Position numbers and translations under genes: made by a program
Assembly (NCBI GenBank): GCA_963821725.1
Contig: CAWGFA010000014.1
Location: forward strand, 48,797-112,796
Reading direction: 5' to 3'
Source of the DNA: an uncultured Acidimicrobiia bacterium
GTDB taxonomy: Bacteria; Actinomycetota; Acidimicrobiia; Acidimicrobiales; JACDCH01
Length of the DNA: 64,000 nucleotides
Shown here: positions 823 through 31,259 of the stretch, one piece after another
Position numbering within the stretch: position 1 is the first letter of the stretch
Layout of the letters: every line of letters starts with the position of its first letter
Notes under the pieces: generated by a model
The model's database searches: none
Told to the model about the DNA's origin: nothing
What the model saw: the letters and a program-made list of their open reading frames with translations, nothing else

Positions 823-835
823 GGTCGCGTTTGCG

Positions 836-883: not shown

Positions 884-885
884 GG

Positions 886-12300: not shown

Positions 12301-13742
12301 CGAGGCTGGGCAGCAACCCGCCGGCCATCGGCAGCAACAACTCCCGCAATCCCGACGTCAGCGACGACGGGCGCTACGTCGCGTTCGACACGACCGCCAG
12401 GAACCTCCTGCCGAACGAGCCCGGCGACTGCGACGGGCCTGTGCACGGTCGCGGTCGTCGTCGACATCGACGCGCCAGGCCACGCCGGCGCGCCACAGTT
12501 GCTCGGACCGACTGCCGATCCAGGCAATGCGACCGGGATGCCCAGGGACGGCGAGTTCGGCACGGCGTTGTCGGGCGATGGACGGTTCGCCGTCTTCGGC
12601 TCGTTCGGCAGCGACCTGCTTCCGCCCGGCGCCGACACGAACAACCACGACGATGTCTTCCTGCACGAGCTGCGCCCGGTGGATCCGCCCATCCCGGCGA
12701 ACGTCGACTTCGGCGACGTCCCCGTCGGCAACGCGTCGCCGGCGTCGTTGGTGCAGTTCACGACCAACGACTTCGGACCTGCGCCGGTCCTCGGCCTTTC
12801 CCTCGTCGGCGCCAACCCGGGCGACTTCAACATCTTGGGTACCACCAACTGCTCGCCACCGTTGCCCGGACGCGCCGGCGGCCAACGTCGCGGCCGTGCC
12901 GAACTACGCGATCCTCCATCTCGACACGCCGTGCGTCGTCTCGGTGAACTTCACGCCGACGGCCTTCGGCACTCGCACCGCGACACTCCGGCTCGTCACC
13001 GGTACTCCCTTCCCGGCCAGCAACCCCGAAGGCCTCGCGATCCCGGCGGGGACACCGCCTTCTCGGATCACGACGGACGTGTCACTCGTGGGCGGACCGG
13101 GCGCGCCTGCGTTCCAGGTCGCTCCGGTGCCGCTCGACTTCGGTCTGCAGACGCTCGGACAGCTCACACCCGACCGGCCGCTGACCGTCACGAACGTGGG
13201 CGGCAATCCCTTCGTGATCTCCGGCGTGACACTGACCGGCGCCAACCCCGGTGACTTCACGATCACGTCGGATCTGTGCAGCGGCGTCGTGGTGAACCCG
13301 CTCGCCACCTGCGTGGTGCGGGTCGCGTTCCACTCGACCGGCGCCGGGCGACCGGTCGGCGTTCGTGCAGTTCGTCGACACGGCGGGAGGTTCGCCACAC
13401 CTCGCGCCGCTCATGGGTCGAACGCCGACGCTCGCCGTGAATCCCGGTGTCGCCGCGCCAGGGCGAACGGTTGACGTCATCGGCACGAGCTGGCTGCCGG
13501 GACAAGCGGTTGCATTGACGACGGTCGACACGCGCGACCCGACGCACGTGTTCTCCGAGTCACGCATCGCCATCGCTGACGGCACGGGCAACTTCCGGGT
13601 CGTCATGGTGATGTTCCCGAAGACGACCCCTGGATCGAGGTTCGTCATCGGCACTGGTCTGGCCCCGACGGCTACGGCGCGGGCATCGCTGTTGGTTGCG
13701 TTCGCGACGAGCCAGGCCCCGAACTTCCTCACGAGGGGCTGA
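9373..13742 (+). pseudogene. giant secreted/anchored protein: PD40 (TolB-like) beta-propeller repeats + choice-of-anchor-D/ASH-like modules
   Basis: Stitched from track ORFs 9373..10392, 10365..11366, 10453..10863, 10951..13254, 11976..12947, 12527..13474 and 13365..13742 (>=8 frame changes). N-terminal anchor ALVIALLAAVPIVIA. Repeated S.DGR.VAF.S...D.N...DV(Y/F)V.D motifs. Three GANPGDF(T/N)...C...V.F.P modules. RBS AGGAGAGC before GTG 9373. Confidence 0.65.
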
Positions 13743-13810: not shown

Positions 13811-14438
13811 ATGAGGCATCGCATTCCCACGTACGTGTACGCAACCGACCAGCTCTCCGAGGCCGGCATCGTGTCGAGGTTGCGTCCGCAGCCCGAAGTC
13901 GATCTCGTCGCCGAAGACGAGATCGACCGGGCCGTCGTCGGCGTCGTCGTCGCCGACTTCGGTCGACGCGGACGTCATACGCGTCATCCGAAGCATCCAA
14001 CACCTCGGTTGCTCCCGAGTCGCGATCGTCGTCCCCGACCCCGACGACACCGTGATCCTCACGTTGCTCGAGGCGGGCGTGTGCGGAATCCTCCGCCGCG
14101 CCGAAGCATCGGCCACGTCGCTGGTCACGCTCGTCGAGTCGGCGGCCCGCGGCGAGGGCTCGCTGCCGCCCGACATGCTCGGCCGGCTGTTGCATCAGGT
14201 CGGCCAACTGCAACGTCAGGTCCTCGCGCCGCGCGGGCTGACGATGACCGGACTCACCGAGCGCGAGATCGACGTGCTCCGCCTCGTGGCCGAAGGGTTC
14301 GACACCGAGGAGATCTCCAAGAAGCTCGCCTACTCGCAACGCACGATCAAGACCGTGATCCACGACGTCACGACGCGCCTCTGCCTGCGCAACCGCACGC
14401 ACGCGGTGGCCTGGGCCTTGCGCGAAGGCCTGATCTAA
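13811..14438 (+). pseudogene. LuxR/GerE-family transcriptional regulator with receiver-like N-terminal half, one frame change
   Basis: HTH LTEREIDVLRLVAEGFDTEEISKKLAYSQRTIKTVIHDV in track ORF 14052..14438. N-terminal half MRHRIPTYVYATDQLSEAGIV...VVVAD is in the 13772 frame. Switch at ~13965. Confidence 0.7.
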
Positions 14439-14507: not shown

Positions 14508-16207
14508 CTACTTCTCCGCGAAGAGCTCGATCTCGGAGATCGCCACCGGCGGAGGCGGGGTCCCGATCGCCTGGTAGGTCGACACGATGTGGATCTCGAC
14601 CTGCGTGATGCCGTGACCGTTGCGAGATGCCGACCTTCTGTGGATCGGGCGCGTCCTTCAGGTCGATGTCCGACGTCTTCCCGGTGTTGAACACGAGGTG
14701 GAGCTTCTGCGCTCGACTGAACTGGGCGAACGAGTCGCGAGCGCCGTTCTGGATGATGGCCTTGTCGAGATCGACGGTTTGCCCACCGAAGGTCAGCACG
14801 AGGACGGGTTCGCCGTTGCCCGCAGGCGCCACCCAGAACGTGTTGCCCGCGTGATCGATGGCGTTCGTCGCCGGGTTCTCCGGTGTCTGCGTCGTCGCCA
14901 ACGCGCGCCGCCGGGTTCACGGGGACGAACTGTTGCGTCGTGTAGTCGTTCCACTTGTCCTTGACCGGCTGGACGAACGTGTCTTGGGCCCAGTTGCGGA
15001 GCGGCGGGAGCAACGCGAGCGCGGCCACGATGACGATCGCCGCGGTGGTGACGACCTTGCGCAGGGCGAGCATCGTCTCCTGGCCGAACTTCTTCTTGGC
15101 CTTGACGCCGGCCTTGCCCGGACGCTCTCCGACCTCGAGCTGCTTCACCTTCTTCTGTGGCCACAGCCGCTTCCACCACGGCCGCTTGACGACTTCAGCG
15201 CTGACGAGCGACTCGCCGCAACGACTGCAGAACTTCCGGGCCGGCGGGTTGCCTTCCCCGCACTCGCCGCAGATGAGGTCGCCCGGCTGCAGCCGGCGCG
15301 TCGGCTTGGTCTTCTGGATCGTCCGCGTCGCCTTGCGCGGCGCGGCCGGCTGCATGGCGTCGGGCTGCGCCGGCTCCGGCTTCGTGGGCGCGGTCGCGGC
15401 CTCGTCGAACGTCGGCTCGGGAGCCGACGACACGTTTCCGGCGACTCGGGCAGCGCCGGCGGCGGCTTCGCGACCGGCACCGCGAGGGCGGCCGACCATC
15501 GGAGCCTCCGCCGGCAGCGCAGGACCCGGTGGACCGGTGGCCCGGGCGGCACCGGCGGACCCGGAGGACCGGGCGGGCCACCCGTCGGCGGACCGGGCGG
15601 ACCAGGAGGACCGCCCCGGCGGCCATCGGCGGACCCGGAGGCCCAGGCGGACCAGCGACGGGCCGACCCGGCGGACCCGGAGGACCACCCACCGGCGGCC
15701 TCGGCGGACCCGGCGGCCCAGGCGGGCCACCGATCCCGGAGGACCCGGGGGACCCGGAGGACCACCACCCGGCGGCACCGGGCGGACCCGGAGGCCCGGG
15801 CGGGCCACCCACGGCGGACCTGGAGGACCTGGAGGTCCCGGTGGACCCGGCGGGCCCACCCCCGGCGGACCCGGAGGCCCCGGCGGACCCATCCCGGAGG
15901 ACCCGGCGGCCCCGGCGGTCCCGGCGGTCCCGGTGGCCCCGGTGGTCCCGGCGGCCGCCCGGCGGCCCTCCGGGACCGCCCGCTCCGGCGCGGCCGGACG
16001 ATCGCCGACATCGAGGTACGCCAGGCTGGTGATGCGTTGCAGCAGCGACTTCTTCTTCGGCTCCTCTGCCTCGAGCTGTTCCGCGGTCGGCACATCGACC
16101 TTCGGCGGCACGATCTTCTCGCCGGTGAACTCGAGGAACGAACCACACGTTCCGCAGAACGTGTCGGTGTCGCCGTTGTGGAACCCGCACTTGCGGCACA
16201 CGATCAT
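14508..16207 (-). pseudogene. double Zn-ribbon / (Gly-Pro-Pro)n / single-TM / C-terminal discoidin-like domain protein, coupled to the baseplate operon
   Basis: Stitched from track ORFs 14435..16237 and 14368..14901 plus a third frame for the C-terminus (NGHGITQVEIHIVSTYQAIGTPPPPVAISEIELFAEK*, TAG at 14508). Zn ribbons: CRKCGFHNGDTDTFCGTCG and CGECGEGNPPARKFCSRCG. TM helix VVTTAAIVIVAALALLPPL. ATG 16207 overlaps the TGA of track ORF 16204..16656, one of the frames stitched into the upstream gpI-like gene (ATGA). Confidence 0.6.
15520..15965 (-). repeat. coding Gly-Pro-Pro (collagen-like) tandem triplet repeat
   Basis: The minus strand reads long runs of [10 protein letters not shown]. All three minus-strand frames (track ORFs 14435..16237, 15145..16146, 15195..16199) alternate between GPP runs and Arg-rich text, so the true frame changes several times. 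Confidence 0.6.
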
Positions 16208-16745
16208 CGCCGCAACGACCTCCACCCGATGAACCACGTGGGCCGGCTTCGCCTGTATGACGATGCGGTCCAGTGCAGCTTCGTTGATCGCGTCGGGGTC
16301 GTCGACCTCGACGCGTACCGCGACACGCGGCGCGGGCTCGCCCGGGAAGTCGCCGCCCGGGTCTGCGATGCGGCGACCGCGCCGTTGTCGACCACGGTCA
16401 CCATCACCGCCGGTGAGAAGGCCGACGTGACGCGTCGAGTCCAGCGATCGTGCCTCGATGCCGGAACAGCTCGACGGCGTTCGCGATCGCGTCGCGCCGG
16501 CGCTCGACCGGCCAGCTCTCGTCGAGGAGGATGCCGACCCAGCCTCCGAGCCAGTCGAGGAAGTCGCTCGGCGCCATGGCCGGATCGATGTAGTACTCGA
16601 GGCAATCGAGCGTCGCCATCGCCGGCGCGATCACGTCGTCGAGCCCGCGGCACCACTCCATCGTGAAGAGGTCCTCTTGGTAGATCGCGGGCAGCATCTC
16701 GCCGATCGACAACGGCATCTCGACGCCGGGCATCACACCGCGCAT
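16204..16745 (-). pseudogene. phage tail protein I-like baseplate wedge protein (TIGR02242-type)
   Basis: Track ORF 16404..16745: LPAIYQEDLFTMEWCRGLDDVIAPAMATLDCLEYYIDPAMAPSDFLDWLGGWVGILLDESWPVERRRDAIANAVELFRHRGTIAGL. The C-terminal part (VEVDDPDAINEAALDRIVIQAKPAHVVHRVEVV) is in other frames. ATG 16745 overlaps the upstream stop (TGATG). The 3' end is uncertain. Confidence 0.6.
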
Positions 16746-18714
16746 CAGCGTTGCTCCACCTGGATCTGGTGGTCGAACGAGAAGACGAGGCTCGCGGGCG
16801 TCAACTCGATCCGCTGCGTGGCCTCGCCGCGCTCACGCGTCACCGGGTTCGCGCCGTACACGCGCACGTCGTTGACGATGTCGACGCCTCGCACTTGCTG
16901 GAGGACACCGAAGATGTCACCGGCCTGCACGTCGCGGCCCCACACCCAGCCTTCGCCCGCGGCACCGCCGACGAGCGGGTTGAGGTAGCGGAACAAGGCT
17001 CGTCAGGCAGTCCTCCTCGACCCGGCTCACACTGGCACGCGGCGCGGCGACGACGCGAGCGACCACGGTGACTCCCTGGTACATCGGCGGTTCGACCAGC
17101 ACCCTGGTTCCGATCAGGCGAGCCTCGTCGAGGCGATCGGAGACCTTCCGCAACGTCTCTTCGGACAGCAGGAGCTGGTCGAACTCGATCCCGACGGGAT
17201 CGGACGCACTGGCGGGAACCAGCAAGACCTTGACCGAGCCCGCATCGGGACCTTCGCCCGCGGTCAAGCACTTCACACGCGCCACTTCCGGCGCGGCCTG
17301 CTTCGTCAACAGCTCGTAGTCCTCCGCGGTCACCGCGCGGCTCCGCGTCCGCAACACGATCGGCCCGCGGCCCTTCGCCTCCTCGAGCGTCTCTCCGTCG
17401 ACGCCACCTTGGGCTGGCTCGCGGTTCTCGACCCGCGACACGTAGGGAATCGCGGTCCGCAAGACGCGTGATCGTTCGGCGAGCCACGTTGCCTCCGGAG
17501 CCGCCGCCGACGGTGTACATCGCCATGCGCATGTCGATGCCTTTCGGAGGCACCCAGCCGTACTGGTCGTACGTGCCGTCGAGCCTGACGCACGGCGGGC
17601 CCGAGCGTGATCTCACCGTGTACGGGATCGAACGTGTAGTGACGGTCGTCGGGTCCGCTGTCCGCGAACTCGGAGACCTCGGTCCACTCCTCCCAGCCGT
17701 CATCGGAGCTGCTCTCGAGCACGACGGGGCCGCCGCCGGCAAGGACCGGAGCGCGAAGCGTCCGGAAGTGCTGACCGGGCGTGCCGTCGGACGCGCCGAG
17801 CGCTTCGTTGCGAACGAGCTCCGCGTGCACGGCGTCGGTCGTTCCGCCGACCGTCGACGCGCTCAGACCGTGAATGAGCGGTGACGAGGTGTACGACGGC
17901 TGCCCGGACTCTGCTTCGACGACCCGTGCCCGCAGGTAGCCCCCTCGTTCCTCGCGGAACACCGACACGACGTGTGTCCGCGGCACGTGCAGGACGATCT
18001 GTCCGTCGCGGTTCAAGCCACCGGTGTCGTCGTGGTCGACCTCACACGCGTCCCACGCCGTGCCGTTCCATGCCTCCCAGACCAGCGGCGGGTTGTCGGG
18101 ATCCACGCCGACACCGTCGATGTGACACGTCACCTGCAGCGCGACCGCGCAACTCGGCACCGCTTCGCTCAAGGCGAGGTACAGGCAGTCGCCGACCTCG
18201 GGCGTCGTTTGGAACGCGGCGAACTGCGACGCGAGCTTGACCTGATCGGTGCGATCGTCCCACTCGTCGTCACTCGTCGGGTTGGTCGCGTCCGCGCCCG
18301 CCGGTCGCGACTGCGTCGAGCTTGCACGGGATGATCCGCAGCTCCTCCACGGTGGCGAACACGATGGCGTCGTCGATGTCGGTCCGCACCGTCGACACCT
18401 CGGTGCCCGGCTGGATCGGGATGATGCTCACCGCCGGCGTGGCGAGCCAGAACGTGACGGGCACACGTGCCGGCGTCGGCGGCAGCAGCCGAACGCCGAT
18501 CAGCTCGAGGAACTTGATGTAGAGCCGGTCGGGCACGCGGTTCAAGCCGGTACAGCAGCTGATCGGTCATGAACGCGAAGGTCTCGATCAACGTCACGCC
18601 CGGATCGGAGACGTTGTGGTCCGTCCACTCGGGGCAACGGCGCTGCACGAGTCGCTTCGCGTCGTCGACGAGGTCCTGGAACCGGCGATCGTCGAGGTTC
18701 GGTGCAGGAAGCAT
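16745..18714 (-). pseudogene. Baseplate_J-like baseplate assembly protein (Afp11/gp6-like, TIGR02243-type)
   Basis: MLPAPNLDDRRFQDLVDDAKRLVQRRCPEWTDHNVSDPGVTLIETFAFMTDQLLYRL (18169..18897 frame), then pieces in 18270..18545, 17330..18172, 16917..17462 (AVTAEDYELLTKQAAPEVARVKC) and 16745..16996. At least 5 frame changes. Confidence 0.75.
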
Positions 18715-19120
18715 CAGTAGTCGGTCCCGTCTTCGGGGATCGTGTAGAAGGGGAAGACCAGGTTGCGGCGGTCGTTCGTGTCGAGCGGCTGGTACTCGAT
18801 GTCGATCAGCAGCTTGCTGCCGTCGTCCCCGTCCCGTGATCACGCGGACGTTCTTGACCTCGACTCGCGGCTCCCATCGCAGGATGGACGTTCGCACCTC
18901 GAGCGAGAGTCCGGCGATGGAGTCGTGTCCGAGCCTCGGAACACCCAGTCGCGTACGCGGGAGCCGAACTCGGGCGCATCGGTCGCTCGCCCGGATAGGT
19001 CGCGAGGATCAGACGTATCGCCTCTTCGAGCTCCTGCTCGCGACGCACGAGCGCGATGCCGCCACGGCTGTTCGTCCGCAGTGGAAACGCCCAACCGGCG
19101 CCGATGTAGTCGTCGTGCAC
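18714..19120 (-). pseudogene. GPW/gp25-like baseplate wedge protein
   Basis: MHDDYIGAGWAFPLRTNSRGGIALVRREQELEEAIRLILATYPGERPMRP / EFGSRVRDWVF / EVRTSILRWEPRVEVKNVRVITG / DDGSKLLIDIEYQPLDTNDRRNLVFPFYTIPEDGTDY*, spread over at least 3 frames. One switch sits at the C4 run 18827-18830. Confidence 0.75.
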
Positions 19121-19130
19121 GCTCGCTCCG

Positions 19131-21091
19131 TCAGTTGAGCCCGAGAGGGTTGCCCTTGATGGTGGCGGGCCCGGTGCTCTCCACGCTCACCATCGCTCCC
19201 TTGAGCTGAAGTTGTTGTTGCGCCTCGATCGAGATGGTTGGCGCCTTCAGCGATGATCTGTCCGGCGCCCGGCGTCGTCGATTCGATCGTGATCGCACCC
19301 ATGTCGTCCATCGAGAGCGTGCAGCCACCGGCCGCGCCGTTCACCTGGATCTCGATCTTCTTGCCGACCGGCTGCTTCATGTCGAGGTTGATCTTGAGCT
19401 TGCCGTCCTTGTCCTCGATCCTCATGCCGGTCTTCTGCTTCGGAATGGCGTCGGTCGGATCGGGAGTCGGATCCTCGGTGAACACCAACTTGTGGCCGTC
19501 ACGCGAGTACGAAGCCGCGCTCCGCGACCTTGCCCATGGTGACGCCGGGGACCGGAACCTTCTTCGAGTCCTTCGGATTCGACAGCCCGCCGACGACGTA
19601 CGGCCGGCGGATGTCGCCGAACTCGAACGCGACGAGCACCTCGTCGTCGGGCTTCGGAGATGAGCATCCACCCGCCCTTCTTGCCCATCCCGACTTGCAT
19701 GACGCGACACCAGTCGGACACGTAGTTGTCGGCCAACCACGGGAACGCGAGGCGAACTCGTGCCTTCGCTGTTCGGGTCGTTGTTGTCGACGACGATCGC
19801 CGGCACCACGCCCTCGATGCGGGGCGGCGACGCGGCGCCGGCGTTGCTCTGTCCCATCGAAGCCAGACCCGAGCAAGCGAGCGCTCCTGCCGGCCGCTCA
19901 CGATGAATTGGGTGAGGTACGAAGACTCGAACGGGTCGTCCTCGTCGAAGACGTGCCGGGCGTTGGTGACGACCCACTTGCCCGAGAAGTAGCCGGGCGT
20001 GTTCTCGATCTTGACCGTCGATGCCCGCCTGCACCAACGGATTGCCCTCGCACGTGCCTTCTGCTTCCGCGAAGGTCGAGCCGACGTGCTCGGCCACGCT
20101 CTTCGCCATCCCGTCGGCTTCGCCCGTGCTGCCGAGTGGTCGATCGACGATCGCGTACACGTCACCGTTCACCGACGTCGGGAGCGCTTCTTTGCACGCC
20201 CCAGTCGATGCTCGCGCCGGTCCCTGGGATCAGCACCGGAATCGGGATGTCGGGGATTCGCGGTGGCAACATGAACTTGTCGTAGAGATCCGACGCGCCG
20301 TCGACGTCGTCGAGGTCGACTTGCTTCGTGTCCGCTCGACTCCCGGCTGACGATCGCTTCCTTGTTGCTGGAGTCCCACGCACGGACCATCACCTTCGGC
20401 ACCTGACCGCAGCCGGTGACCCGCGGCCGGAAGCGGAGCAGGTTGTCGCCGGCGGTGAGCTCGGCGGACCGCCCGGGAAGCGGGAAGATGCCGAGCGATC
20501 ATCGGCGTGTCGCTCGTGGTCTTCGGCTTGCGGAAGACGAACGAGCCTTGGACGACACCGAAGTCGAACCCGTTCTCGGCGGCGCGGCACTTCAGGAACT
20601 CCCAGTCGGTCTGGTTGAACTGCGCGACCGCGTCGTGCACGCCGGTGGTCGAGTCGATCTGCGGTGGCGCGGTGACCAAGCCGTACTTCAGGGCCATCTG
20701 CTGGGCGATGTCGGAGTCCTTCATGTTGCGGTAGACGTAGGTACGACGCACACGTTGCATGCGGTGCGCCTTCTCGTAGCCGCGGACGTCGTGTAGGCAG
20801 ACGTTGCGGTCGATGTCGGCTTCGATCGCGGTGACCTCGCCCTCGATGAGCGCCGGCGCGTCAGCTCGAGTCGTCGGCGCCGCCCCAGATCTTCACCGAC
20901 GTACCGATGTCGATCATGTTGTTGGCGAGCACACCACCTTCGTCGAGGAAGGTGATCTCGAACATGTCCGGAAGGTGCACGTGCGTGTCGACGACGACGC
21001 GACGCATCGTTGGGCTCGACCATCGGGTGCAACGGTCGACCTCCGCCGGGGCACCCTACGGCCCGACCTTGACCTGCGCACGGACCGCCAT
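19131..21091 (-). pseudogene. gpD/VgrG-like spike protein
   Basis: VVDTHVHLPDMFEITFLDE...IEGEVTAIEADIDRN...YRNMKDSDIAQQMALKYGLV (20230..20760), VPAIVVDNNDPNSEG / RVRLAFPWLADNYVSDWCRVMQ / DDEVLVAFEFGDIRRPYVVGGL, and C-terminal beta-helix-like ISIEAQQQLQLKGAMVSVESTGPATIKGNPLGLN* (19131..19328). Many frame changes. Confidence 0.75.
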
Positions 21092-21092
21092 G

Positions 21093-21899
21093 TCAGAACA
21101 CCTCGTCGGCCGACGGCAACATGACCGTCCGGCCGGGTCGCACGCGGAAGCGGATCGTCGATGCCGTTCGCGTCCGCGATCGTCGCGCCACGCTCGTGGA
21201 CGCTCGTACGTCGTCGGTGGCGATCGAGTGCAGGCTCTCGCCCGGACGCGGACCATACGCGAACGCCGTCCGGGAACACCTCCCGACGTCGGGTTGGTCA
21301 GCATGCGTGAGCAGGAAGTTCGGCGCCTCGTCGAACGTGCACCGTGACCTCCGCCCGGATCGGGTTGCCGTGCACTGTCGAAGCGCTTGTAGATCGATCG
21401 ACACGCTCGTTGAGGTATCCCTGCATCAGGAAACCACGAGCGGGGTCGCCCCACTGCAGCGTCAGCAGTGGTCGGACGCGCCGTCGATCTGGATCTTGAA
21501 ACCGAGTGCGGAAGCAGCGGCACCGAGGGCTGCGCCCGAGCGATCCGACCGCCTCCCGGTTGCGTCCACTGGAGAAGGAGATCGCAACGCGCTTTGATGC
21601 CGCCGCCGACCACCGACGCCTGTCTCGACGGCATCACCGACAGCCGCCGCCGCTGTCGTCGGACAGCAAGGGCGGTGAACGTGATCTTGGTCGGGAGCGT
21701 GCCGCGGTACATGTTCGTGTAGCCGGCTGGTGTACCAGTCGGCGAAGGCACGCCCGGTCTTGCCGCCCGTCTTCGTCTGCGGCCGTGTGGTTGTTGGTGC
21801 CCTTTCTGACTTGGAAGCTCTCGGGTTCTGGTCGAACGTCACTTCGTCGACCGGCATCATCATGTTGAAGATCTTGATGTTTCCTGCAGTGTCGAACAT
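21093..21899 (-). pseudogene. CIS tube-initiator-like protein with C-terminal LysM (Afp7-like)
   Basis: N-terminus MFDTAGNIKIFNMMMPVDEVTFDQNPE... (21462..21899 plus the 21634..22023 frame). C-terminus PGESLHSIA...IADANGIDDPL/RVRPGRTVMLPSADEVF* is LysM-like, split over frames 21093..21404 and 20914..21279. At least 5 frame changes. Confidence 0.6.
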
Positions 21900-21902
21900 C
21901 GT

Positions 21903-22353
21903 CTATTCCTCGAGAAATCCTTGATGCGCCATCTCGAGCGTCTCGAGTCGCGATCGCATGTGACGTCGGCGTCGAAACTCGGAGCCTTTCCACGACGTGG
22001 GATACACACCTCGCAGCTTCCACGTCATCACCGGTTGCCGGTGCGAATCGTGCAACGTGATCGCCGCCGTCCCACCGGCGCCCGCTGTCCTGCCATCTTC
22101 GACAACCACTTCAGCGTCTTCGGGCGCATCGTCCGTGGTGATGGCCCGCGTCAGCGTGATGTTCGAGTACAGGACTCGATTCAGGCAGGACCGGTACGTA
22201 GTCGTTGTGGCCGAGCGGCACGTAGTCGTGCAGCTTGAACTGGACCGAGAGGCCGTCGCACTTCGCCCAGCCGCCGAGATGGAAGCCGTCGACGATCACG
22301 TCGAACCGGTGTCGAGATGCCGAACCGCGTGTCGGCGGAGATGCGGTCGGCAT
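21903..22353 (-). pseudogene. gp19-type tail tube paralogue B (Afp5-like)
   Basis: MPTASPPTRGSASRHRFDVIVDGFHLGGWAKCDGLSVQFKLHDYVPLGHNDYV (22111..22353), then other frames, then TAAITLHDSHRQPVMTWKLRGVYPTSWKGSEF...LEMAHQGFLEE* (21903..22109). Confidence 0.65.
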
Positions 22354-22784
22354 CTATCTTGTCCGCCGGAAGGAAGCCCTCGTGGGCCAGTTCGAGTGTC
22401 TCCATCGCGACGTGCCCGCTCTGGCTGTCGAACTGCGGCCCGCTCCACGCGACCGGTAGCACACCGGTGCAGGTTCCACTTGCACTGCGTGAGAGGCGTC
22501 TCGCTTGTTGTGCCAGAACGGATAGCCCTTGATCGACGCGGTCACCTTCTTGGAGTTGAACGGCGGTCTGACTCGCAGCCAGCTCCATGATCGCGCTTGG
22601 TGTGCTTCAGCGTGGTCATGCGCCCGAGCCTCACGTTCTGGTAGGTCGTGTACGCAGGCTCGATCCACCGGTAGTTGTCTCCGTCTCCTGCGCGGTACTC
22701 CGCGAGTTCGAACTTCACCGCGAGCCCGTCGACCTTCGACCAGTAGCCGAGATCGTGACCGTCGATCGTGACCTCGAAGATCAT
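22354..22784 (-). pseudogene. gp19-type tail tube paralogue A
   Basis: MIFEVTIDGHDLGYWSKVDGLAVKFELAEYRAGDGDNYRWIEPAYTTYQNVRLGR (22542..22784), then KKVTASIKGYPFWHNK (22354..22668 frame) and LPVAWSGPQFDSQSGHVAMETLELAHEGF (22181..22588 frame). TAG 22354-22356 abuts the next ATG. An N-terminal extension to ~22931 is possible. Confidence 0.6.
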
Positions 22785-22940
22785 CGTGGTGATCTGCGGC
22801 TCGGTGTCCGGCTGGCCGTTGGCGCGCCGATGTGCGGCGGTCCAGACCCCGAGGGCGTCGGCACCGTCCGCACCGTCACGTTCATCCCGGACGGGTAGAG
22901 CGACTTGTCGAGGTACGACTGGAAGGACACGGCGAAGCTC

Positions 22941-25546
22941 CTAGCGAAAGTCAGTGAGGAAGCCGGATCGCTCACGGTCGATGATGCAGATTGCCGGCGC
23001 AACCGGGTCACCATCCGGTCGTAGAGCAGCGATCGCGAGGTCTTCGACATCGTGGTCGTCGAGGTGGGCGAGGATGTCGGTTGGATCAGTCCCGGGGACT
23101 TCGCTCCGTTCACGCGAGCCCGCTCGCCGTGCAGCGAGCGTCGTGGTGCCCGTTGCCGCCGCCGCGGCGCCCGCCGCGGCGCCGACAGCCGTCGTGTGCG
23201 ACCGGTGGCGCCCCATCAGCGAGCCGCGGCGGGCCCCGCCACCGGTCGCGGTCGTTGTCGCGCTGCCGCGGCCGCCGGCGCCATCGCCGGCGTCGCGGGA
23301 GTCTGTGGCTGTAGCGGCCGCCGGCTACGTCGGCATCGTGATGCTGGCCGAAATGGCTGTCATGGCTGTAGCGGCGTCGTCGTGGCCACACCGGCGCGAG
23401 CAGTCCGAGCGCTCCTCCCCAGCCGGTCGTCCTGTCCGTCGCCGGATCCGGCAGCCGGATGTCGTCGACGTCCTGCGCCAGCTGCGCTGTCCGTGCCCCC
23501 TGGCGACGACGACGGCGTCCCCGGGTCGTCACGACCCGTCGGCGTCGTGGGCGTGACCGGTCGCGGCAGGCGTCGTGCGGTGTGGACGGCGTGGTCGCGG
23601 GTGTCCCCGCTGGGGCCTGCCCTGCAGTGGTGGTGCTCTGGCCCGTGTCGCCTGCGTCGGCACGGCATGTCCTCGAACTGCTCCGTCTGCCGCTCACGTT
23701 CCGCTGCGACGGCGATCAACGCCTGCGTGCGGTCGTAACGATCGCGGACTGCCCATCGTCATGCCGAGCGCCGTGCCGAGGCCGCCCGACACCAGGACGA
23801 TCTCGGCTCTTCGTCCTCACCGCCCTGGCTCGATGGACGTATTGCAGGTGACGATCGAACTCGTGACTGTCCGTGGCCGCGGTCGGCGTGGCCCCCTCGC
23901 GAACGCTCGTACGCCAACGACGACCGAGCGTCCTCGGCAGCAGGACCGCCTGCCGGACTGGAGTCTGCGCCGCCAGTCGTGCACGAACTTGAGATGACGA
24001 GTCGTTCTCGCCGCGATCACTGGCCGGCGCCGGCTCCACCGCGGCCACACGCGATAGGCGCTCGTGCCCCGTTGGTCGTGCTGGAGCGCGACGCGAAACG
24101 CTTCGTTCTGCCGGACCCGTCGGACGGCGCTCGCCATTCGTCGTCATGCGCCTTGCGGAGGCCGGAACGACGAGCGCGCCCTCTGCATCCCACTGCGCCG
24201 CGCCGCGTGCGACCAGTTGGTCGGTGACCGCACGCAGGAAGCCGCCGCTGTCGATCCTCGGATCGCCGGGCGTGGCGCGCAGGGTGCGGATCGGCGCGAC
24301 CCGCGGCTCCGGGTCGTCGCCCCGCACGAACCGCTCGACCGCGTGCGCTTCGGCCTCGAGTCGCCGGCCCTCCTGCGCTCGACGGCGCGCGGCAGGGTGC
24401 GAGCCGTAGACCCGGTGCTGCACGACGTGCGTGAGCTCGTGCGCGAGCACGGCGCGCGTCTCGGGTGCGTCGAGCGGGCCCGCCTCCATGGGCAAGAACA
24501 CCTCGCCTTCACGTGTGAAGGCTCGGGCTCCGATGCGCGACGCGATCCGGAGAGCCTCTCGTCACGACGGACGGTGACCGCGTCCAGGATCGCGACCGAG
24601 CGACGCGTGTCGACGTCAGCGCGCACCCCGGCGGAACGTCGGCGTCGTCGGTAGTGGGCGACGGCCCGCCGCGCCGGCTCGGGAGGGGCGAGCCTCGTCG
24701 GGCGCGTCGCGTGCTCGGCGGTTGTTCGGCGGCGCGATCTCCGGAACCGACGCCTCGACCTCGATCGTCTCGGGTTCGACGCTTCGGGATCGCCGACGTC
24801 GAACGGTCCGGAGGGCAAGGGCGCACCGAGACCGAGCCGTCGCGACTCCGCCAGCGACCGTCTCCGAGCGCGGCCGGACGCTCGAGGTCTCGCGTCCGCG
24901 CACCTTGCGTCCGCTCGTCCCCGCGCCAGGTCGGGACGAAGCTCGGCCAGCTCGCGCCCCGTGCGCTCGGCCAGCAGCGACGCTGAAGATCGGCGGCGGT
25001 AGCTCCTCGGGGATCTCGTCGTCGACAGAGGTCGGGCTCGCGAACACGTCCGGCGTCGACTCTCGGCTCGGCCGCGACCAGGTCGCCTGCGTAGGTCGTG
25101 AGGTCGGACGATCTGGCGCGACCGCTCGCGACGACCGGACGGCGCGCGGCCTCGACGTCCGCGTACAGCTCCGCGGTCACCGGCGTCGACATCGCCCGGA
25201 TCCTGCGGTGACGACAGGTACGCAGGAGCCGGCATGCGCACGGGCAAGACCCGTGCGACATGCCCGCGGGGCGCGTCCGACGGAAACCTCGCGCAGCGAC
25301 CGTCGGCGAGGAGCGGCTGTGTCCCCGCGAGCTGCGAGATGAACGACGCGCTCGAGCCGACGATCGGCGCGGCGGCGCCGGTCGCCGACGGCGCTCAACG
25401 GCTCGAGCGCTCTGCCAGCCCCCGGCATGCGCGACGAGCCGGCGCGGACCTGCGAGATCGTCGATCGTGATCGGTCGCGCCTGCCGGCGCGGACGACGGC
25501 GCTCCCGCGTCGTGCGATCGGCGACGCCCGCGAACGGCCAAGGCAT
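22941..25546 (-). pseudogene. DUF4157 (zincin-like HExxH) domain protein occupying the tape-measure slot; may be 1 or 2 genes
   Basis: Stitched from many track ORFs (24509..25546, 24144..25247, 24616..25047, 23716..24501, 23360..23719, 23110..23697, 22941..23216). DUF4157 core ...AFTRGEVFLPMEAGPLDAPETRAVLAHELTHVVQHRVYG (motif ~24427-24441). Hydrophobic IVLVSGGLGTALGMTMG plus a coiled-coil-like segment. C-terminus ...LLYDRMVTRLRRQ/LIIDRERSGFLTDFR*. Confidence 0.5.
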
Positions 25547-25559
25547 GGCCGGGCTCCGC

Positions 25560-25728
25560 TCAGCTTCCCGCGGCGGAGCGCATGGCGTTGATCTCTCCGA
25601 CGAACCTGCTGCGCACCGGGTGCTCCAAATCGAGAATGTGATCGAGCGGCCAGTGGAACCAGAACGCGAGGTAGCTCACTTCGCTCCAGAGACGGTCGTT
25701 GCCGACCGTCAGGATTCCCCCGGGGCAT
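25560..25728 (-). pseudogene. small conserved CIS-associated protein (W/H-rich, ~55 aa)
   Basis: Frame reads ...VGNDRLWSEVSYLAFWFHWPLDHILDLEHPVRSRFVGEINAMRSAAGS*. The only ATG (25728) is one base out of frame. Deleting one G from the minus-strand C4G5 run (25717-25725) gives MPRGILTVGNDRLW.... Not in the ORF track as a clean ORF. Confidence 0.45.
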
Positions 25729-26101
25729 CACCGGCGAGATCCACCGTGAACTCGTGCCCGCACGCCGGACAGGCGACGGCTGCTTCGGAGTGACCCTCCT
25801 GGTTGATACGACGGTAGAGATCCTGAAGGAACGACAGATCGGATGCGTAGAGCCGCTCGATCACGGTGCTGTCGACTGACGGCAGGTCGCCGAGATGCGT
25901 GACGGTGCGCTCGAGCAGCAACACCGTGAGGTACGCAGGGTTGGCACGGACGCGGGGATCGACTTGCGGCGCGATCTCGTCACGAGCGGTCGCGAGGCGC
26001 ATGACACCTTCGCGGTGCGTCCGGCCGCGCTCGTCCACGTAGCCGCGCGGGAGGACGAAGGCGAACTCGGTACGGAGCGCGGGATCAGTCGCGGACATCA
26101 T
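25709..26101 (-). CDS. conserved hypothetical protein in the tail-assembly-chaperone position, C-terminal CPACG knuckle
   Basis: Intact 130-aa ORF directly after the tube gene: FAFVLPRGYVDERGRTHREGVMRLATARDEIAPQVDPRVRANPAYLTVLLLERTVTHLGDL...VACPACGHEF. Assignment is positional only. Confidence 0.55.
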   Translation of the reverse strand: MMSATDPALRTEFAFVLPRGYVDERGRTHREGVMRLATARDEIAPQVDPRVRANPAYLTVLLLERTVTHLGDLPSVDSTVIERLYASDLSFLQDLYRRINQEGHSEAAVACPACGHEFTVDLAGDAPGES

Positions 26102-26103
26102 GG

Positions 26104-26568
26104 TCAGACGGAGACCCGCTGGATGAACTCACACACGATGGTGACGGTCTCCATCAGCACTTCCGATGCGCCCGCCTTCAGTGCACCGATCTCGATCTTG
26201 GACGGCCACGCCTCGGTGAGGTGGTAGCGCGCCACGGGCTCGCCCTTCGTGTTGAACATCGTGAGCGAGCACGACTTGCGCGCCGCGGCCACGTCGCCGA
26301 GGACGACGAGCTCGTGCCAGGCCGCCATCTCGATGTTCTTCGTCATACCGCGCTTCAGCGTGACGGTCGGCGGCGTGCGCTTGCCGGGCAGCTTCTTGAG
26401 GATGTTCTCCTTCGCGTCCGACTGGATGAAGTCGACGACGTCGATCGCACTCGAGATGCCGGACAGCTCAGAGAACTGAGCCATGCTGTGACCGTCGATC
26501 GACAGCTCGAATCGTGCCGCGGTCAGGGCGTCGTACTCCTGGCCCTGACCGACTCCTGCATTCGGCAT
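26104..26568 (-). CDS. contractile tail tube protein (Phage_T4_gp19 / TIGR02241-type)
   Basis: MPNAGVGQGQEYDALTAARFELSIDGHSMAQFSELSGISSAIDVVDF...KKLPGKRTPPTVTLKRGMTKN...YHLTEAWPSKIEIGALKAGASEVLMETVTIVCE. SD AAGGAG lies 8 nt before ATG 26568. Intact. Confidence 0.85.
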   Translation of the reverse strand: MPNAGVGQGQEYDALTAARFELSIDGHSMAQFSELSGISSAIDVVDFIQSDAKENILKKLPGKRTPPTVTLKRGMTKNIEMAAWHELVVLGDVAAARKSCSLTMFNTKGEPVARYHLTEAWPSKIEIGALKAGASEVLMETVTIVCEFIQRVSV

Positions 26569-26599
26569 GTGTCTGACTCCTTCGAACACTCGGTCGGGC

Positions 26600-28155
26600 T
26601 TACTCGCTCAGCCCGCTGCCGTCGGCGAACTGTGAGATCCGGAAGACGACGAACTCAGCCGGCTTCACCGGCGCGATGCCGATCTCGACGGTGAGGATGC
26701 CGACGTCGCGGTTCTCGGGCGGGTTGTTCTCGGCGTCGCACTTGACGAAGAACGCCTCGTGCGGTCGTCTGGCCGAACAACGCGCCGCCGCGCCAGACGC
26801 GGCGCAGGAACGCTTCGACCGTGCGCTTCACCGAGTCCCACAGCTTGAAGTCGTTGGGCTCGAACACGACCCAGTTCGTGCCGGTGAGGATCGACTCTTC
26901 GACGTAGTTGAAGAGTCGGCGCACGTTGAGGTAGCGCCACTCGGGGTCGGACGACAGCGTGCGTGCGCCCCACACCCGGATGCCCTGACCGGGGAACGAG
27001 CGGATGCAGTTCACCGCGACCGGGTTGAGCTGGTCGTGCTCGCCCTTCGTGATGTTCGTCTCGAGCGAGACGACGCCGCGGCACACCTCGTTGGCGGGGG
27101 CCTTGTGCACGCCGCGCGTGTCGTCGTTCCGGGCCCAGACGCCGGCCATCGTGCCCGGACGGCGGCATGAACGTCGGCGCGCCGGACAGCGGATCCATGA
27201 TCTTCAGCCAGGGCCAGTACAGGGTGGCGTACTTCGAGTCGTAGCCCGCGTCGTCGACGCGCCATTCCTTGACCTGCTGCGCGTTCAGCCCGGGCGGCGG
27301 GTCGAGGATCGCGACCCGATCGGCCATCAGCTCGCAGTGGGCGATCATCGCCAGCTGCACGGCCTTGAACTGCTCGAGCGTGATCATCTCCTGCTGCAGC
27401 GCGGCCGCGAGATCCGGCACCGACAGCATCGTGACCTCGTCCACCGCTTCGAGACCGGCGAACCCGGTGCGGTCCGCGGCGCTCGCCGACGTAGTCGTTC
27501 GGGCTCCACTTCGAGCGCGGCGGCGGACGGTGCCTCGCCACCGCTCAGCGCGAACGAACCCTTCGGCGGAACCGCGAGCGCGCCCGAGCCCTTCGTCTCC
27601 TCGATCGATGATGAGCTTCGACTCCGCCTTCACCTTCGTGACGACGTTGTTGGCGCCCTTGCGGGTGGTGACGTTGTCGAACACCTCCGCCTCGCGGCCG
27701 TTCTCCTTGACGATCAGCTTGAAGGTGTCGTCGCTCGGCTTCCGATGCATCGGCGATCTCGACGCTGATCTGATCGCCTGCCGCACCGCGCTTCGAGCGC
27801 TTCGATGGCGTAGCCCTTCTGCGCGTTGCCGCCCTCGGCCGGCGCCGGCAGCAGTTCGGCGCGTGCCGCCTTGGCGCCGTCGCCGTCAGCCGTTCGCGCC
27901 GATGCGCACGACGTAGGCGGCGCCGCCACCGTTGAGGAAGTACGCGTACACAGCGTGCGCGAGGTACGAGCCCGGCATGAACGCGCCGAAGTTGGACGTG
28001 AACTGCGTCCAGTTCGTGACCAGCGTCGGCTCGTTCACCGGGCCCTTCTCGGCGAAGCCGACGAACGCGGCCACCGCGGTGCCGACCCCTTCGATCGGCT
28101 TGGAGCCCGACGAGACTTCTTCGACGTAGACGCCTGGCGACAGATACGTTGGCAT
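26600..28155 (-). pseudogene. contractile tail sheath protein
   Basis: MPTYLSPGVYVEEVSSGSKPIEGVGTAVAAFVGFAEKGP (27886..28155), ...DRTGFAGLEAVDEVTMLSVPDL...YATLYWPWLKIMDPLSGAPTFMPPSGH (26665..27786), MAGVWARNDDTRGVHKAPANE...IRVWGARTLSSDPEWRYLNVRRLFNYVEESI (26655..27149), and C-terminus EEAFFVKCDAENNPPENRDVGILTVEIGIAPVKPAEFVVFRISQ...* (TAA 26600). At least 6 frame changes. SD AGGAGAGG before ATG 28155. Confidence 0.85.
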
Positions 28156-28340
28156 GCCCTCTCCTGAAACCTTGGGTCAACTCAGATCTCGCATGGTGCG
28201 GTTTCGAACGAGCGACGGCCAGACAAAGCGGTTGGCCTACGAGACCGATCATGCTGCCCGATCGGGCAAGCGCGGGCGCCCCATCATGCGCCCCGGTGCC
28301 TGAACCGGGATGGTGCGGACGGCGGTTCACGCTTGGTGTC

Positions 28341-29037
28341 GTGGTCGACGACGTCGACGCGGCACTCGCTGCGCTGTTCGCGGCATCGAAGGCGAAGGAC
28401 CAGAAGCTCGCGTGCGCGTTCGACGCGCCGACGCCGGACTGGTCCGCGAACGTCAAGTCGCCGACGCTCAACCTGTTCCTCGTCCAGATCGACGAGAACG
28501 TCGACGCCCGTCCCGGTGCGTGGGCAGACGTGCGGGACGACAACGGCCAGACCATCGGTCGCCAGCCGCCGCTTCGCCGGTACGACCTGCGCTACGTGCT
28601 CAGCGCGTGGGGCGACGGAGCACAAGTCGAACACCGGCTGCTCGGCGGCCGTGCTGACGCTCGTACCCGCCTACGACACGATCCCGGCCGAGCTGCTGTC
28701 GGGATCGCTCGCCGAGCTCGAGCTGCCCGTTCGGCTTCGCATCGCGCAGGACGACCTCGGCGTCAGCATGACCGACATCTGGTCGTCACTCGGTCAGCCG
28801 GTGCGAGCGTCGCTCACGCTCGTCGTCGACCGCGCCGCTGCTGCCGACGCTGGTGACCGAACTCGCGCCCCCGGCGGAGTCGCTCGACATCGGCCTCGCG
28901 GGTGTGCGCCCGCGCAAGGGCCGTGCGCCCGGCGCCCGATCTCTCGGACGTCGACTCGGTGGACGCGCGCGTGTCGCCCGACGAGGACGACGCCCCAGTG
29001 GACCAAGTACCGCGTCCGCGAGCGCATCCAGGACTGA
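28341..29037 (+). pseudogene. DUF4255 (Pvc16_N) tail-terminator/cap-like protein (Afp16-like)
   Basis: VVDDVDAALAALF...FDAPTPDWSANVKSPTLNLFLVQIDENVDARPGAWADVRDDNGQTIGRQPPLRRYDLRYVLSAWGDGAQVEHRLLGG (28149..28856 frame), then AVLTLVPAYDTIPAELLSGSLAELELPVRLRIAQDDLGVSMTDIWSSLGQPVRASLTLVV (28333..29037 frame). At least 3 frame changes. The start (GTG 28341) is inferred. Confidence 0.7.
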
Positions 29038-29041
29038 CGGG

Positions 29042-29826
29042 TCAGCGGCGCCGGGCGCTTGGCTCCGCTCGCTTGCGGTAGATCGACACGTGGCGGGTGC
29101 TCAGCGGCGTGAAGGTCTGGTAGTCCCACACGCGAGCGAGCATCGAGCTCGAGTGACGCCGCGCCGGCCAGTGCGTCGACGCCGGTCGACAGCAAGGGGA
29201 TGCATCCGCCACGGCCGGCGGCGAACGCCTGACGAGGTGACCTCCATGTGCTCGCCCACGAGCAGCTCCTCGTCGGGCCACCACTCGTAGACCTTGAGCA
29301 CGGCGCCCTCGGACGTCACCATGTCGATCTCGTATTGACGCGTCCCGATCGCCGGTGGAACGCCCGGTACGTACAACTCCACGATCACTCGTCCGCTGTC
29401 CGTCAAGACGTCGCTCGCGCGCTTGAGGCAAGCCCCCTGCGCCTCGTCGGTGGGCAGGCAGAACAGCGTGTTGAACGCGGCGAACACGACGCCGAACTCC
29501 GGTGCGGTCTCGGGAAGTTCGAGGCCTTCCATGTCGCCGACCACGGCGCGCACCGAGTCGCCACCGGGCTTGCCGGCGAGCCGGTCGAGCATCGATTGCG
29601 AGGCATCGACCCCCCACACGTCGAGCCCGCGCATGGCCAGCGCGCAGGCCACTCTCCCGGTGCCGACACCGAGCTCGAGCACGGGTCGCCCGTCCGCCAG
29701 ACGCTCGCCACGAGGTCGACCGTCGGGCCGGTGTCGGCCGCGAGCGAGTACCACGTGTCGTAGATGTCGGCGAAGGCTTCGCCGTACCCGTCGATCGGGA
29801 AGTCCGCGATCAGTTCAGGTACACGA
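29042..29826 (-). pseudogene. class I SAM-dependent methyltransferase
   Basis: YGEAFADIYDTWY (29403..30623 frame), VLELGVGTGRVACALAMRGLDVWGVDASQSMLDRL...FAAFNTLFCL (29101..29754), and C-terminus MLARVWDYQTFTPLSTRHVSIYRKR (29042..29617 frame). At least 3 frame changes. Start approximate. Confidence 0.6.
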
Positions 29827-30443: not shown

Positions 30444-30606
30444 TGGGCACCTCCTGACGCCGCGAACCGACGCAACGTCTGGAGCGAACCTAAGTGTCGG
30501 ACGAGATTTCGTGTCCGAGCGCGTGGGCGTCGTTTGGGGCAAACGGCGGTGCCCGCTCGGGCAACCGTGTGGCCCTCGGCAGTCGTGTGTCCGCCATGCC
30601 GACGAA

Positions 30607-30638
30607 AGGAGGGCGGACCCCACCCGGTCCGCCCTCCT
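30607..30638 (-). terminator. perfect 13-bp-stem hairpin between X4 and X5
   Basis: AGGAGGGCGGACC(30607-30619) / loop CCACCC / GGTCCGCCCTCCT(30626-30638). On the minus strand it lies ~90 nt after the X4 stop and is followed by TTTCGTC. Confidence 0.55.
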
Positions 30639-30728
30639 CGTCCGCCCGACCTAGATCGAGACTCTTGCGTCGCTCAGTTCGCTCACGCCGTTTGCATCGG
30701 AGCGGAGGTCCGCCCGCCCACGACCGTG

Positions 30729-31242: not shown

Positions 31243-31259
31243 TTTGGTTCTCCTTGTAT

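Follow-up and report, generated by a model that had tools for sequence, protein, structure and literature searches.

The locus described here, at positions 14508-29037 of a 64,000-nucleotide stretch of DNA from an uncultured Acidimicrobiia bacterium (assembly GCA_963821725.1, contig CAWGFA010000014.1, positions 48,797-112,796), raises the question of which kind of contractile injection system (CIS) is encoded by a set of phage-tail-like genes that are almost all interrupted by frameshifts in the deposited sequence. In the following, the whole 64-kb stretch is called the window, and the locus refers to 14508-29037. An original prediction had proposed a headless phage-tail-like CIS locus, and the present analysis confirmed the gene families and their order as well as the lack of genes for head, replication and integration. 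We regard the locus, with a rough probability of 0.7, as a chromosomal gene cluster for a CIS of the Streptomyces CIS-Sc kind (dbeCIS type IId-like) in Acidimicrobiia, in which the frameshifts would represent an assembly artefact. As judged from the sequence, the system is probably of a type IId-like, cytoplasmic kind, which would extend the Streptomyces-type CIS to an abundant uncultured class of soil and freshwater actinobacteria. The affiliation of the host with the Acidimicrobiia, a class within the Actinomycetota, and the G+C content of the window (~68%) agree with the high-GC actinobacterium that had been expected.

Relationship of the locus to the Streptomyces system

The genes of the locus are readable only after frame correction. 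Raw three-frame translations with stops masked as X yielded partial Pfam matches to the sheath, to eCIS_core and to three gp19 copies, scattered across the three frames, and the genes were read with our own local protein-to-DNA aligner, which allows 1- and 2-base frameshifts and was run against intact homologues: P0001 served as reference for the sheath, P0121 for the membrane protein at the end of the operon, and proteins from the related loci L001 or L007 for the other genes. The remaining 45 kb of the window were covered by a Pfam scan of all open reading frames (ORFs) supported by the G+C content at third codon positions (GC3). All CIS genes could be named in the order that had been listed, running on the minus strand from 28155 to 14508, and most of the frame-corrected proteins exceed the curated Pfam/NCBIfam cut-offs. 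The Pvc16_N, sheath, gp19/TIGR02241, CIS_tube, Phage_base_V, Baseplate_J/TIGR02243, Tail_P2_I/TIGR02242, GPW_gp25 and DUF4157 families were all matched above cut-off, and LysM just below it.

The sheath aligns over its full length with Cis2 of S. coelicolor (PDB 8BKY/8BL4; Casu et al. 2023) at 651 bits, followed by a haloarchaeal CIS sheath at 376 bits as the next-best PDB match, whereas the sheaths of Afp, PVC, AlgoCIS and tCIS match only its C-terminal ~190 residues (~300-506). The Baseplate_J-like protein matches S. coelicolor Cis11 from the CIS-Sc baseplate (PDB 9GTP_1K) at 722 bits over its full length, compared to 29 bits for AlgoCIS, and the best PDB match of the inner tube protein is Cis1a (8BL4_v). 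The L007 orthologue of the tube initiator matches the LysM protein of the CIS-Sc baseplate (PDB 9GTP_P). Judged by these best PDB matches, the sheath and the Cis11 equivalent group with the Streptomyces proteins. A core gene order common to Afp, PVC and Streptomyces CIS had been predicted, of which the Streptomyces order was confirmed, whereas an assignment to the Afp/PVC type is contradicted by the restriction of the sheath similarity to the C-terminal domain. The Streptomyces CIS fall into dbeCIS type IId, with a cytoplasmic mode of action (PMC10066040, PMC10020575), and the IId members from Roseiflexus and Deinococcota are also cytoplasmic (PMC12998442).

The closest genome locus (L001) was found in the uncultured Acidimicrobiia metagenome-assembled genome (MAG) MFD04850.bin.2.5, which shows 81% DNA identity and is collinear with positions 16.1-36.2 kb of the window. 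As seen from the gene tables, intact genes are present in the same order on a 306-kb JGI contig, which also carries P0001, on a second JGI contig and in L007 (GCA_009772125.1). The stitched sheath is 92% identical to P0001 over its full length (overall range 92-94%), and the tube protein is 94% identical to that of L001 and 41% identical to those of the Roseiflexus loci. In the intact relatives, the sheath has ~515 amino acids (aa), the gp19 tube ~150, the following protein ~130, DUF6760 50, eCIS_core 777-954, the spike ~650, Baseplate_J ~655 and Tail_P2_I 179 aa, and the Pvc16_N gene is divergent from the operon there as well. A Kitasatospora megaplasmid encodes a 67.6% identical sheath within a cluster of the same order from DUF4255 to the gene after Tail_P2_I, and plasmids of S. 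clavuligerus harbor a cluster with a 57.5% identical sheath and with DUF4255 next to an ATP-binding protein. In one of the latter (L012), the PLSDB table lists no gene over the 3 kb at 20785-23878, the place of the DUF4157 gene elsewhere, which may harbor an unlisted gene or a pseudogene.

At E <= 1e-20, a search with the sheath returned at least 8,000 homologues, and MAGs of Acidimicrobiia or Ilumatobacteraceae account for many of the top matches that carry a name. Therefore, this kind of cluster is common and the locus is one more example of it. Identical architectures are already present in public genomes, and the kind is now well studied: the view that such systems are still poorly characterised in actinobacteria has been overtaken by recent work (PMC10066040, PMC10020575, PMC12237407, PMC11126660, PMC13277306).

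Genes of the cluster

The cap or terminator gene (28335-29037, plus strand), the equivalent of Cis16/Afp16, codes for a Pvc16_N (DUF4255) protein (100.9 bits, cut-off 27) and diverges from the sheath gene, as had been predicted. The sheath gene (26600-28155, minus strand as all following genes of the operon), the Cis2 equivalent of 515 aa, matches Phage_sheath_1 and Phage_sheath_1C at 74 and 71 bits; after removal of its 8 single-base insertions from the reading between 28155 and 26603, 482 of the 515 residues are identical to intact P0001 without any in-frame stop. It is followed by the intact ORF for the inner tube protein (26104-26568, 154 aa; Cis1a equivalent), which matches Phage_T4_gp19 at 107 and TIGR02241 at 96 bits, and by another intact ORF (25709-26101) for a 130-aa protein. 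The latter carries the predicted CPACG zinc knuckle at its C-terminus (26101-25712, ending in ...ACPACGHEF...) and did not match any Pfam, NCBIfam or PDB entry, and it is kept at the same position in the gene tables of all related clusters. The small W/H-rich protein of a predicted ~55 aa turned out to be a DUF6760 protein of ~50 aa, encoded by an intact ORF (25560-25712, read from 25712 to 25563); its Pfam match (E = 2.2e-5) stays under the gathering cut-off, and DUF6760 is annotated at the same position in related clusters.

The largest ORF of the cluster (22941-25546), directly upstream of the baseplate genes, codes for an eCIS_core (DUF4157) protein of ~870 aa, which occupies the slot of a tape measure protein as proposed in the original prediction (48.7 bits, cut-off 22). 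Aligned to the intact 883-aa ORF of L001, it appears as an Ala/Pro/Arg-rich, mostly low-complexity protein, in which the DUF4157 domain with the HExxH motif AHELTHVVQH is located at residues ~344-408 and not at the extreme N-terminus. No Pfam domain besides eCIS_core and no significant PDB match were found, and the L001 and L007 orthologues contain no hydrophobic 19-mer typical of a transmembrane (TM) helix. DUF4157 is regarded as a "core" domain of the effectors of extracellular CIS (eCIS) and binds proteins of the spike complex (PMC8213781, PMC13277306), and the protein is a probable cargo or cargo adaptor, tme-like by its position. Two further gp19-type tube paralogues follow, as predicted: one of 189 aa (22358-22930; Cis1b/Cis5-like) with 76 bits to Phage_T4_gp19 and 60 bits to TIGR02241, just under the cut-off, and one of ~150 aa (21903-22357) with 88.6 and 79.5 bits, respectively. 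Thus, two of the three tube proteins exceed the TIGR02241 cut-off.

The baseplate part starts with the tube initiator (21095-21899; Cis7/Afp7 equivalent), which was recognized by CIS_tube (35 bits), while its expected C-terminal LysM domain falls short of the cut-off (20.2 versus 20.9 bits). Similarly, the spike protein (19134-21091, ~650 aa; Cis8 equivalent) was identified as VgrG-like by Phage_base_V (73 bits), and the expected gpD-like part remained below the cut-off (Phage_GPD, 27 bits). The next three genes conform to the predicted GPW/gp25, Baseplate_J and P2 gpI-like series, namely a gp25-like wedge (18717-19120; Cis9 equivalent; GPW_gp25 67.7 bits), a Baseplate_J-like wedge (16745-18717, ~655 aa; Cis11 equivalent; TIGR02243 equivalog 521 bits, Baseplate_J 61 bits) and a P2 gpI-like protein (16205-16745, ~179 aa; Cis12 equivalent; Tail_P2_I 41 bits, TIGR02242 87 bits), the frames of which were stitched by eye.

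A probable CisA-family membrane tether

The last gene of the operon (14508-16207, minus strand), predicted as a membrane protein gene, was analysed by Pfam, a tandem repeat finder, alignment to P0121 and hhalign. It codes for a bitopic protein with a single TM helix, which consists of an N-terminal zinc ribbon, a collagen-like (GPP)n repeat, a second zinc ribbon, a Lys-rich stretch, the TM helix and a C-terminal domain resembling NADase_transloc/F5_8C (CBM32-like). The first zinc ribbon (MIVCRKCGFHNGDTDTFCGTCG) overlaps the end of the P2-I gene, and the (GPP)n repeat extends over 15522-15954 with a period of 9 nt. Over the 3' two-thirds of the gene, 305 of 328 residues (93%) are identical to P0121, with 3 frameshifts and no stops. 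In the AlphaFold model of P0121, the pLDDT averages 77 and exceeds 90 in most 10-residue blocks of the C-terminal domain, and this domain of the model matches CBM32 glycan-binding modules in Foldseek; no significant match was obtained in a PDB sequence search with the tether.

CisA (SCO4242) of S. coelicolor is described as a bitopic protein with a conserved outer domain and a mostly unstructured N-terminus in the cytoplasm, for which a contact with Cis11 is predicted; its gene is located right after cis11/cis12, and the protein is required for firing (PMC12237407). As judged from its sequence, the last gene of the operon codes for a CisA-family tether, the position and architecture of which match this description. 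The family was compared with the protein at the CisA position of S. clavuligerus, used in place of SCO4242, which exhibits the same series of zinc ribbon, low-complexity arm, zinc ribbon, TM helix and C-terminal domain; hhalign showed the two to be homologous (probability 98.5%, E = 3.8e-15), and orthology to CisA proper is presumed. A Tail_P2_I gene followed by the same tether architecture is also present in L010 (Actinokineospora alba), L011 and L012.

Members of this family appear in public gene calls with 280-370 aa. In A. alba, an uninterrupted ORF of 748 aa is present instead of the 373 aa called; this ORF opens with the same zinc ribbon where Tail_P2_I ends, and it contains a Pro-rich repeat (L010, 8880-10000). 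On the clean contig L009, the tether ORF stays in frame through GPPGPP... up to the end of the contig (L009, 1-136), and the contigs of three relatives assembled from short reads begin 136-200 nt upstream of the called tether gene. The truncated calls are attributed to the repeat-rich 5' half of the gene, because it breaks short-read assemblies. CisA-family tethers are systematically mis-called in public data.

Cytoplasmic or extracellular mode of action

No match to a tail fibre family was found anywhere in the scanned ORFs, and the slot after the baseplate genes is occupied by the TM-anchored zinc ribbon/CBM32-like protein. None of the ORFs scanned in the 64 kb matched an AAA+ (PF00004) ATPase, with frameshift noise lowering the sensitivity of this search at 30-32 kb, and the six-frame translation contains a single Walker A motif (32863), which belongs to an AAA_16-TPR STAND protein. 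The gene calls of the JGI, L007 and Kitasatospora relatives do not include such an ATPase in the 10-20 kb around the cluster either, and no ATPase at all is annotated within 20 kb of the Kitasatospora cluster. This is a departure from the usual definition of eCIS, according to which every locus encodes an AAA+ ATPase (PMC10020575). The lack of an Afp15-like ATPase and of a tail fibre, together with the presence of a CisA-family tether, points to a cytoplasmic (type IId-like) mode of action rather than to a released eCIS.

By homology to CIS-Sc, the particle would assemble in the cytoplasm on the spike and baseplate, be capped by a Pvc16_N hexamer and lack tail fibres, and the DUF4157 protein or a partner of it may ride as cargo in or at the tube. 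The CisA-family protein would then recruit the particle to the cytoplasmic membrane, with its cytoplasmic zinc ribbon/collagen-like arm contacting the Baseplate_J wedge and its outer CBM32-like domain binding a glycan of the cell envelope. Stress-triggered contraction of the sheath may finally puncture the membrane of the producer itself, leading to cell death, lysis or release of the cell content.

Several points weigh against this assignment. The cytoplasmic mode is deduced from homology to CIS-Sc, and the link to CisA is based on the S. clavuligerus protein and not on SCO4242 itself. An Afp15/Cis15-type AAA+ ATPase is encoded neither in the 64 kb nor within 10-20 kb in the relatives, and the ATPase is needed for the biological activity of CIS-Sc (PMC10020575). 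Moreover, culture supernatants and lysates have yielded Streptomyces particles as well (PMC8505568, PMC10020575). The main uncertainties of the mechanism are the missing ATPase and the non-filamentous host.

The reading that survives best beside the cytoplasmic one is a classical, Afp/PVC-like eCIS, the particles of which would be released by lysis and inject a DUF4157-linked toxin into other organisms. It draws on Pvc16_N and DUF4157 as eCIS-specific markers, on a GerE-type regulator next to the operon, as is typical of eCIS shell regulators (PMC8213781), and on the core gene order common to the window and Afp/PVC. However, an Afp13-like tail fibre or receptor-binding protein and an AAA+ ATPase are not encoded, a membrane-anchored CisA-family protein occupies the slot after the baseplate genes, Afp/PVC sheaths match by their C-terminal domain only, and the closest characterised systems, from Streptomyces and from the Roseiflexus/Deinococcota branch of IId, are cytoplasmic (PMC10066040, PMC12998442). 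We therefore consider an extracellular system unlikely.

Origin of the frameshifts

Between ~14.6 and 34.3 kb (14600-34317), the genes are interrupted by about 120 frameshift events, nearly all of them +1 insertions, which reach local densities of up to one per 40-70 nt. The GC3 signal of the minus strand switches frame every 100-400 nt from 28.2 down to 14.5 kb, a range in which long ORFs are confined to a 1-kb stretch at 25.56-26.57 kb. GC3-based ORF picking and Viterbi frame segmentation revealed the fragmentation and were too noisy for counting events. Based on the alignments, the events amount to 4 in the cap gene, 8 in the sheath gene, none in those for the tube, the 130-aa protein and DUF6760, ~37 in the DUF4157 gene, 4-5 and 2-7 in those of the two tube paralogues, 7-12 in the initiator, 11-13 in the spike, 3 in the gp25, 5-8 in the Baseplate_J, ~3 in the P2-I and 3 in the tether gene. 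Note that the references derived from L001 carry errors of their own, which makes calls of "deletions" unreliable; a recount was therefore made with the clean references P0001, P0121 and L007. Against clean references, +1 insertions account for all 8 events in the sheath and all 5 in the Baseplate_J gene. In a three-way DNA alignment, the additional bases occurred in the window alone, and most of them did not extend homopolymers.

Genes outside of the CIS are affected as well, namely a methyltransferase gene (4 events) and the STAND gene, with 18 events in its 5' 1.6 kb (32926-34317). The zone stops abruptly at 34317 in the middle of the STAND gene, the remaining 1.6 kb of which are clean, and contains clean islands at 25566-26544 and 31953-32681. 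Sporadic frame breaks are present outside of the main zone, for example at ~1.4 kb and 10.4-10.9 kb. DapB_N and DAP_DH_C domains were found on two overlapping ORFs at 823-1987 (plus strand), probably reflecting one more frameshift outside of the main patch. Insertions also dominate the breaks of the L001 locus, which are located at other positions: its Baseplate_J gene has 17 of them, its genes of 884 and 1068 aa are unbroken, and none of the events in the sheath gene of the window is shared with L001. The catalogue from which L001 originates was obtained by a Nanopore-only approach with Flye and one round of Medaka (PMC12313526).

Within the overall explanation, patchy consensus error of a long-read assembly is, from the sequence pattern, a highly probable cause of the frame breaks. 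They are read in this way because neither deletions nor nonsense substitutions nor a restriction to dispensable genes were seen, and if they are consensus errors, the cluster is probably intact in the organism. On the opposite side, the frameshifts may be real mutations, and insertions outside of homopolymers are not a textbook Nanopore error. Programmed frameshifting was rejected, as there are far too many sites, all of them in different contexts.

Real mutations would make the cluster a truly decayed CIS relic from which no particle is produced. Nearly all CIS genes are broken except for those of the tube, the 130-aa protein and DUF6760, most of the flanking genes keep long open frames, and the CIS genes of the related MAG L001 are broken as well, all of which would fit with decay. 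Bacterial pseudogenes, however, are known for a deletion bias, while the events observed are nearly all +1 insertions. In addition, the sheath gene contains no nonsense substitution and codes for a product 93.6% identical to its intact homologue, the corrected proteins exceed family cut-offs despite one event per 40-70 nt in places, the zone extends into non-CIS genes and ends within a gene, and L001, which shares no event in the sheath gene with the window, stems from a Nanopore-only assembly (PMC12313526). A decayed relic therefore appears very improbable. If consensus error is accepted, long-read MAG sequences can contain patches of ~20 kb with single-base insertions that mimic massive pseudogenisation.

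Absence of phage and type VI secretion genes

As predicted, the Pfam scan of GC3-supported ORFs over the 64 kb detected no capsid, portal, terminase or integrase gene and no gene for the membrane complex (TssJLM) of a type VI secretion system (T6SS). A prophage tail module or R-type tailocin, as suggested by the phage-derived sheath, tube, gp25, J and I genes and by weak matches of the sheath to pyocin and T4 sheaths, can practically be dismissed in view of 64 kb devoid of capsid, portal, terminase, integrase, lysis cassette, tail fibre or tRNA genes, the metabolic, chromosomal nature of the flanking genes, the syntenic chromosomal context of the same cluster in several relatives, and the presence of Pvc16_N and eCIS_core, which are not phage tail genes (PMC10020575, PMC8213781). 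A T6SS was likewise rejected, as no match to a TssB/TssC sheath pair, TssJLM or ClpV was obtained and only a weak TssF-like similarity of the Baseplate_J protein was seen.

Neighbouring genes

The bounds originally set for the locus enclose the operon and leave out a DUF4280 gene and the flanking regulators. A gene for a GerE/LuxR-type regulator (13815-14438, plus strand; GerE 47.5 bits) is convergent with the end of the operon and syntenic in the relatives; GerE regulators are known as shell genes or neighbours of eCIS (PMC8213781). No gene for a PAAR protein was found inside the operon. A candidate for the spike tip is a DUF4280 PAAR-like protein of 129 aa (7450-7839, minus strand), the gene of which lies ~6.7 kb outside of the locus and at the same syntenic place in three related Acidimicrobiia contigs; the ORF yields only a weak match to an IglG PAAR-like model. 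Pfam further identified an Ig-like (Cep192_D3/HYDIN-type) protein (7853-9259, minus strand) and a large PD40 beta-propeller/Ig-like protein (9364-13254, plus strand, with frame breaks at ~10.4-10.9 kb), and both genes are also found beside the clusters of A. alba (L010, 14252-18281) and of three related contigs. Based on the conserved neighbourhood, the Ig-like, PD40 and DUF4280 genes possibly form a satellite module of the CIS.

On the other side, a STAND-type AAA_16-TPR protein of ~1070 aa (32737-35955, plus strand; AAA_16, TPR_12) with an intact 1068-aa orthologue in L001 represents a probable regulator, the gene of which is the same neighbour in a JGI relative. Between the cap gene and this regulator (29045-32681, minus strand), fragmented hypothetical genes are found together with those for a class I methyltransferase (30027-29045; Pfam), a DUF922 predicted Zn-protease (~31980-31474; Pfam), which is predicted to be secreted, and a clean 240-aa hypothetical gene (32681-31953) conserved in L001; all of these are possible candidates for cargo or accessory genes.

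The other 45 kb code for metabolic enzymes, SET-domain proteins, regulators and similar proteins. Two SET-domain (protein lysine methyltransferase-type) genes are present within 10 kb of each other (38810-39385, minus strand; 47730-48152, plus strand). ETF beta-type and ETF alpha FAD-binding domains are located in one stop-free frame of 609 aa (49560-51386, minus strand), which represents either a fused EtfBA gene or adjacent genes with the intervening stop missing.

Comparison with known systems

The system shares with CIS-Sc of S. coelicolor (sco4242-sco4260; PMC10066040, PMC10020575, PMC12237407) full-length homologues of the sheath and Baseplate_J proteins, the set of Cis1a/1b, Cis7 (LysM), Cis8, Cis9, Cis11, Cis12 and Cis16, the lack of a tail fibre and of a conventional tape measure, and a bitopic membrane protein encoded directly after cis12, whose cytoplasmic arm is disordered and whose outer domain is of a sugar-binding type. 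In contrast to CIS-Sc, it has no gene for a Cis15 AAA+ ATPase, its cap gene is located directly opposite to the sheath gene and not beside an ATPase gene, a large DUF4157 gene is part of the structural operon, and the arm of the tether contains a collagen-like (GPP)n repeat. Moreover, the host belongs to the Acidimicrobiia and is not a filamentous sporulating actinomycete. No effector of the Sco4256-4258 type was recognized among the methyltransferase and DUF922 matches obtained at 29-32.7 kb, where no aimed search for it was made.

The more distant systems each share part of these features. The tme-type CIS of S. davawensis (PMC11126660) also has its largest ORF, with DUF4157, immediately upstream of the baseplate genes, and the corresponding paper mentions no ATPase and describes a group spanning Actinobacteria, Chloroflexota and Proteobacteria. 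Compared to Tme (2247 aa), the DUF4157 protein of the window is much smaller (~870 aa) and shows neither predicted TM helices nor an EndA-like nuclease domain, and the operon contains no spike-tip gene; the likeness is one of gene content. The cytoplasmic Roseiflexus/Deinococcota clade (PMC12998442) falls within type IId, and its particles were seen free in the cytoplasm, also in unicellular Deinococcota. The tube of the window is 41% identical to that of Roseiflexus loci; the members of this clade belong to another phylum and are much more distant than the homologues from Streptomycetaceae. Afp, PVC and AlgoCIS have the tube, sheath, LysM initiator, VgrG, gp25, J, I and Pvc16_N cap proteins as well as an association with DUF4157 in common with the window, but they own a three-paralogue sheath, with similarity to the window sheath in the C-terminal domain only, Afp13 tail fibres, an Afp14 tape measure, an Afp15 ATPase and toxin genes at the 3' end.

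The same order from DUF4255 through to the zinc ribbon-linker-zinc ribbon-TM-glycan-binding protein is present on the plasmid of Kitasatospora sp. NBC_00070 (NZ_CP108248.1, 258341-274375) and in A. alba, clusters for which no experimental work was found in the literature. They differ from the window in the linker of the tether, which is poly-Gly/Pro/acidic in Kitasatospora and PAPPGA-rich in A. alba versus (GPP)n in the window, and in the size of the DUF4157 protein (1243 or 734 aa versus ~870 aa). It is a tentative and rather doubtful idea that the clusters from Acidimicrobiia, Kitasatospora and Actinokineospora represent a distinct IId-like sub-architecture, characterised by the lack of an AAA+ ATPase gene at the locus, a DUF4157 gene within the operon, docking via an "inverted tail fibre", and the satellite module. 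In such a sub-architecture, the N-terminal zinc ribbon of the CisA-family protein would bind to the baseplate in the manner of an inverted tail fibre, a collagen-like or Pro-rich arm ((GPP)n in the window, possibly trimeric) would span the distance to the TM anchor and the outer glycan-binding domain, and the DUF4280 tip, Ig-like and PD40 beta-propeller proteins would belong to the CIS.

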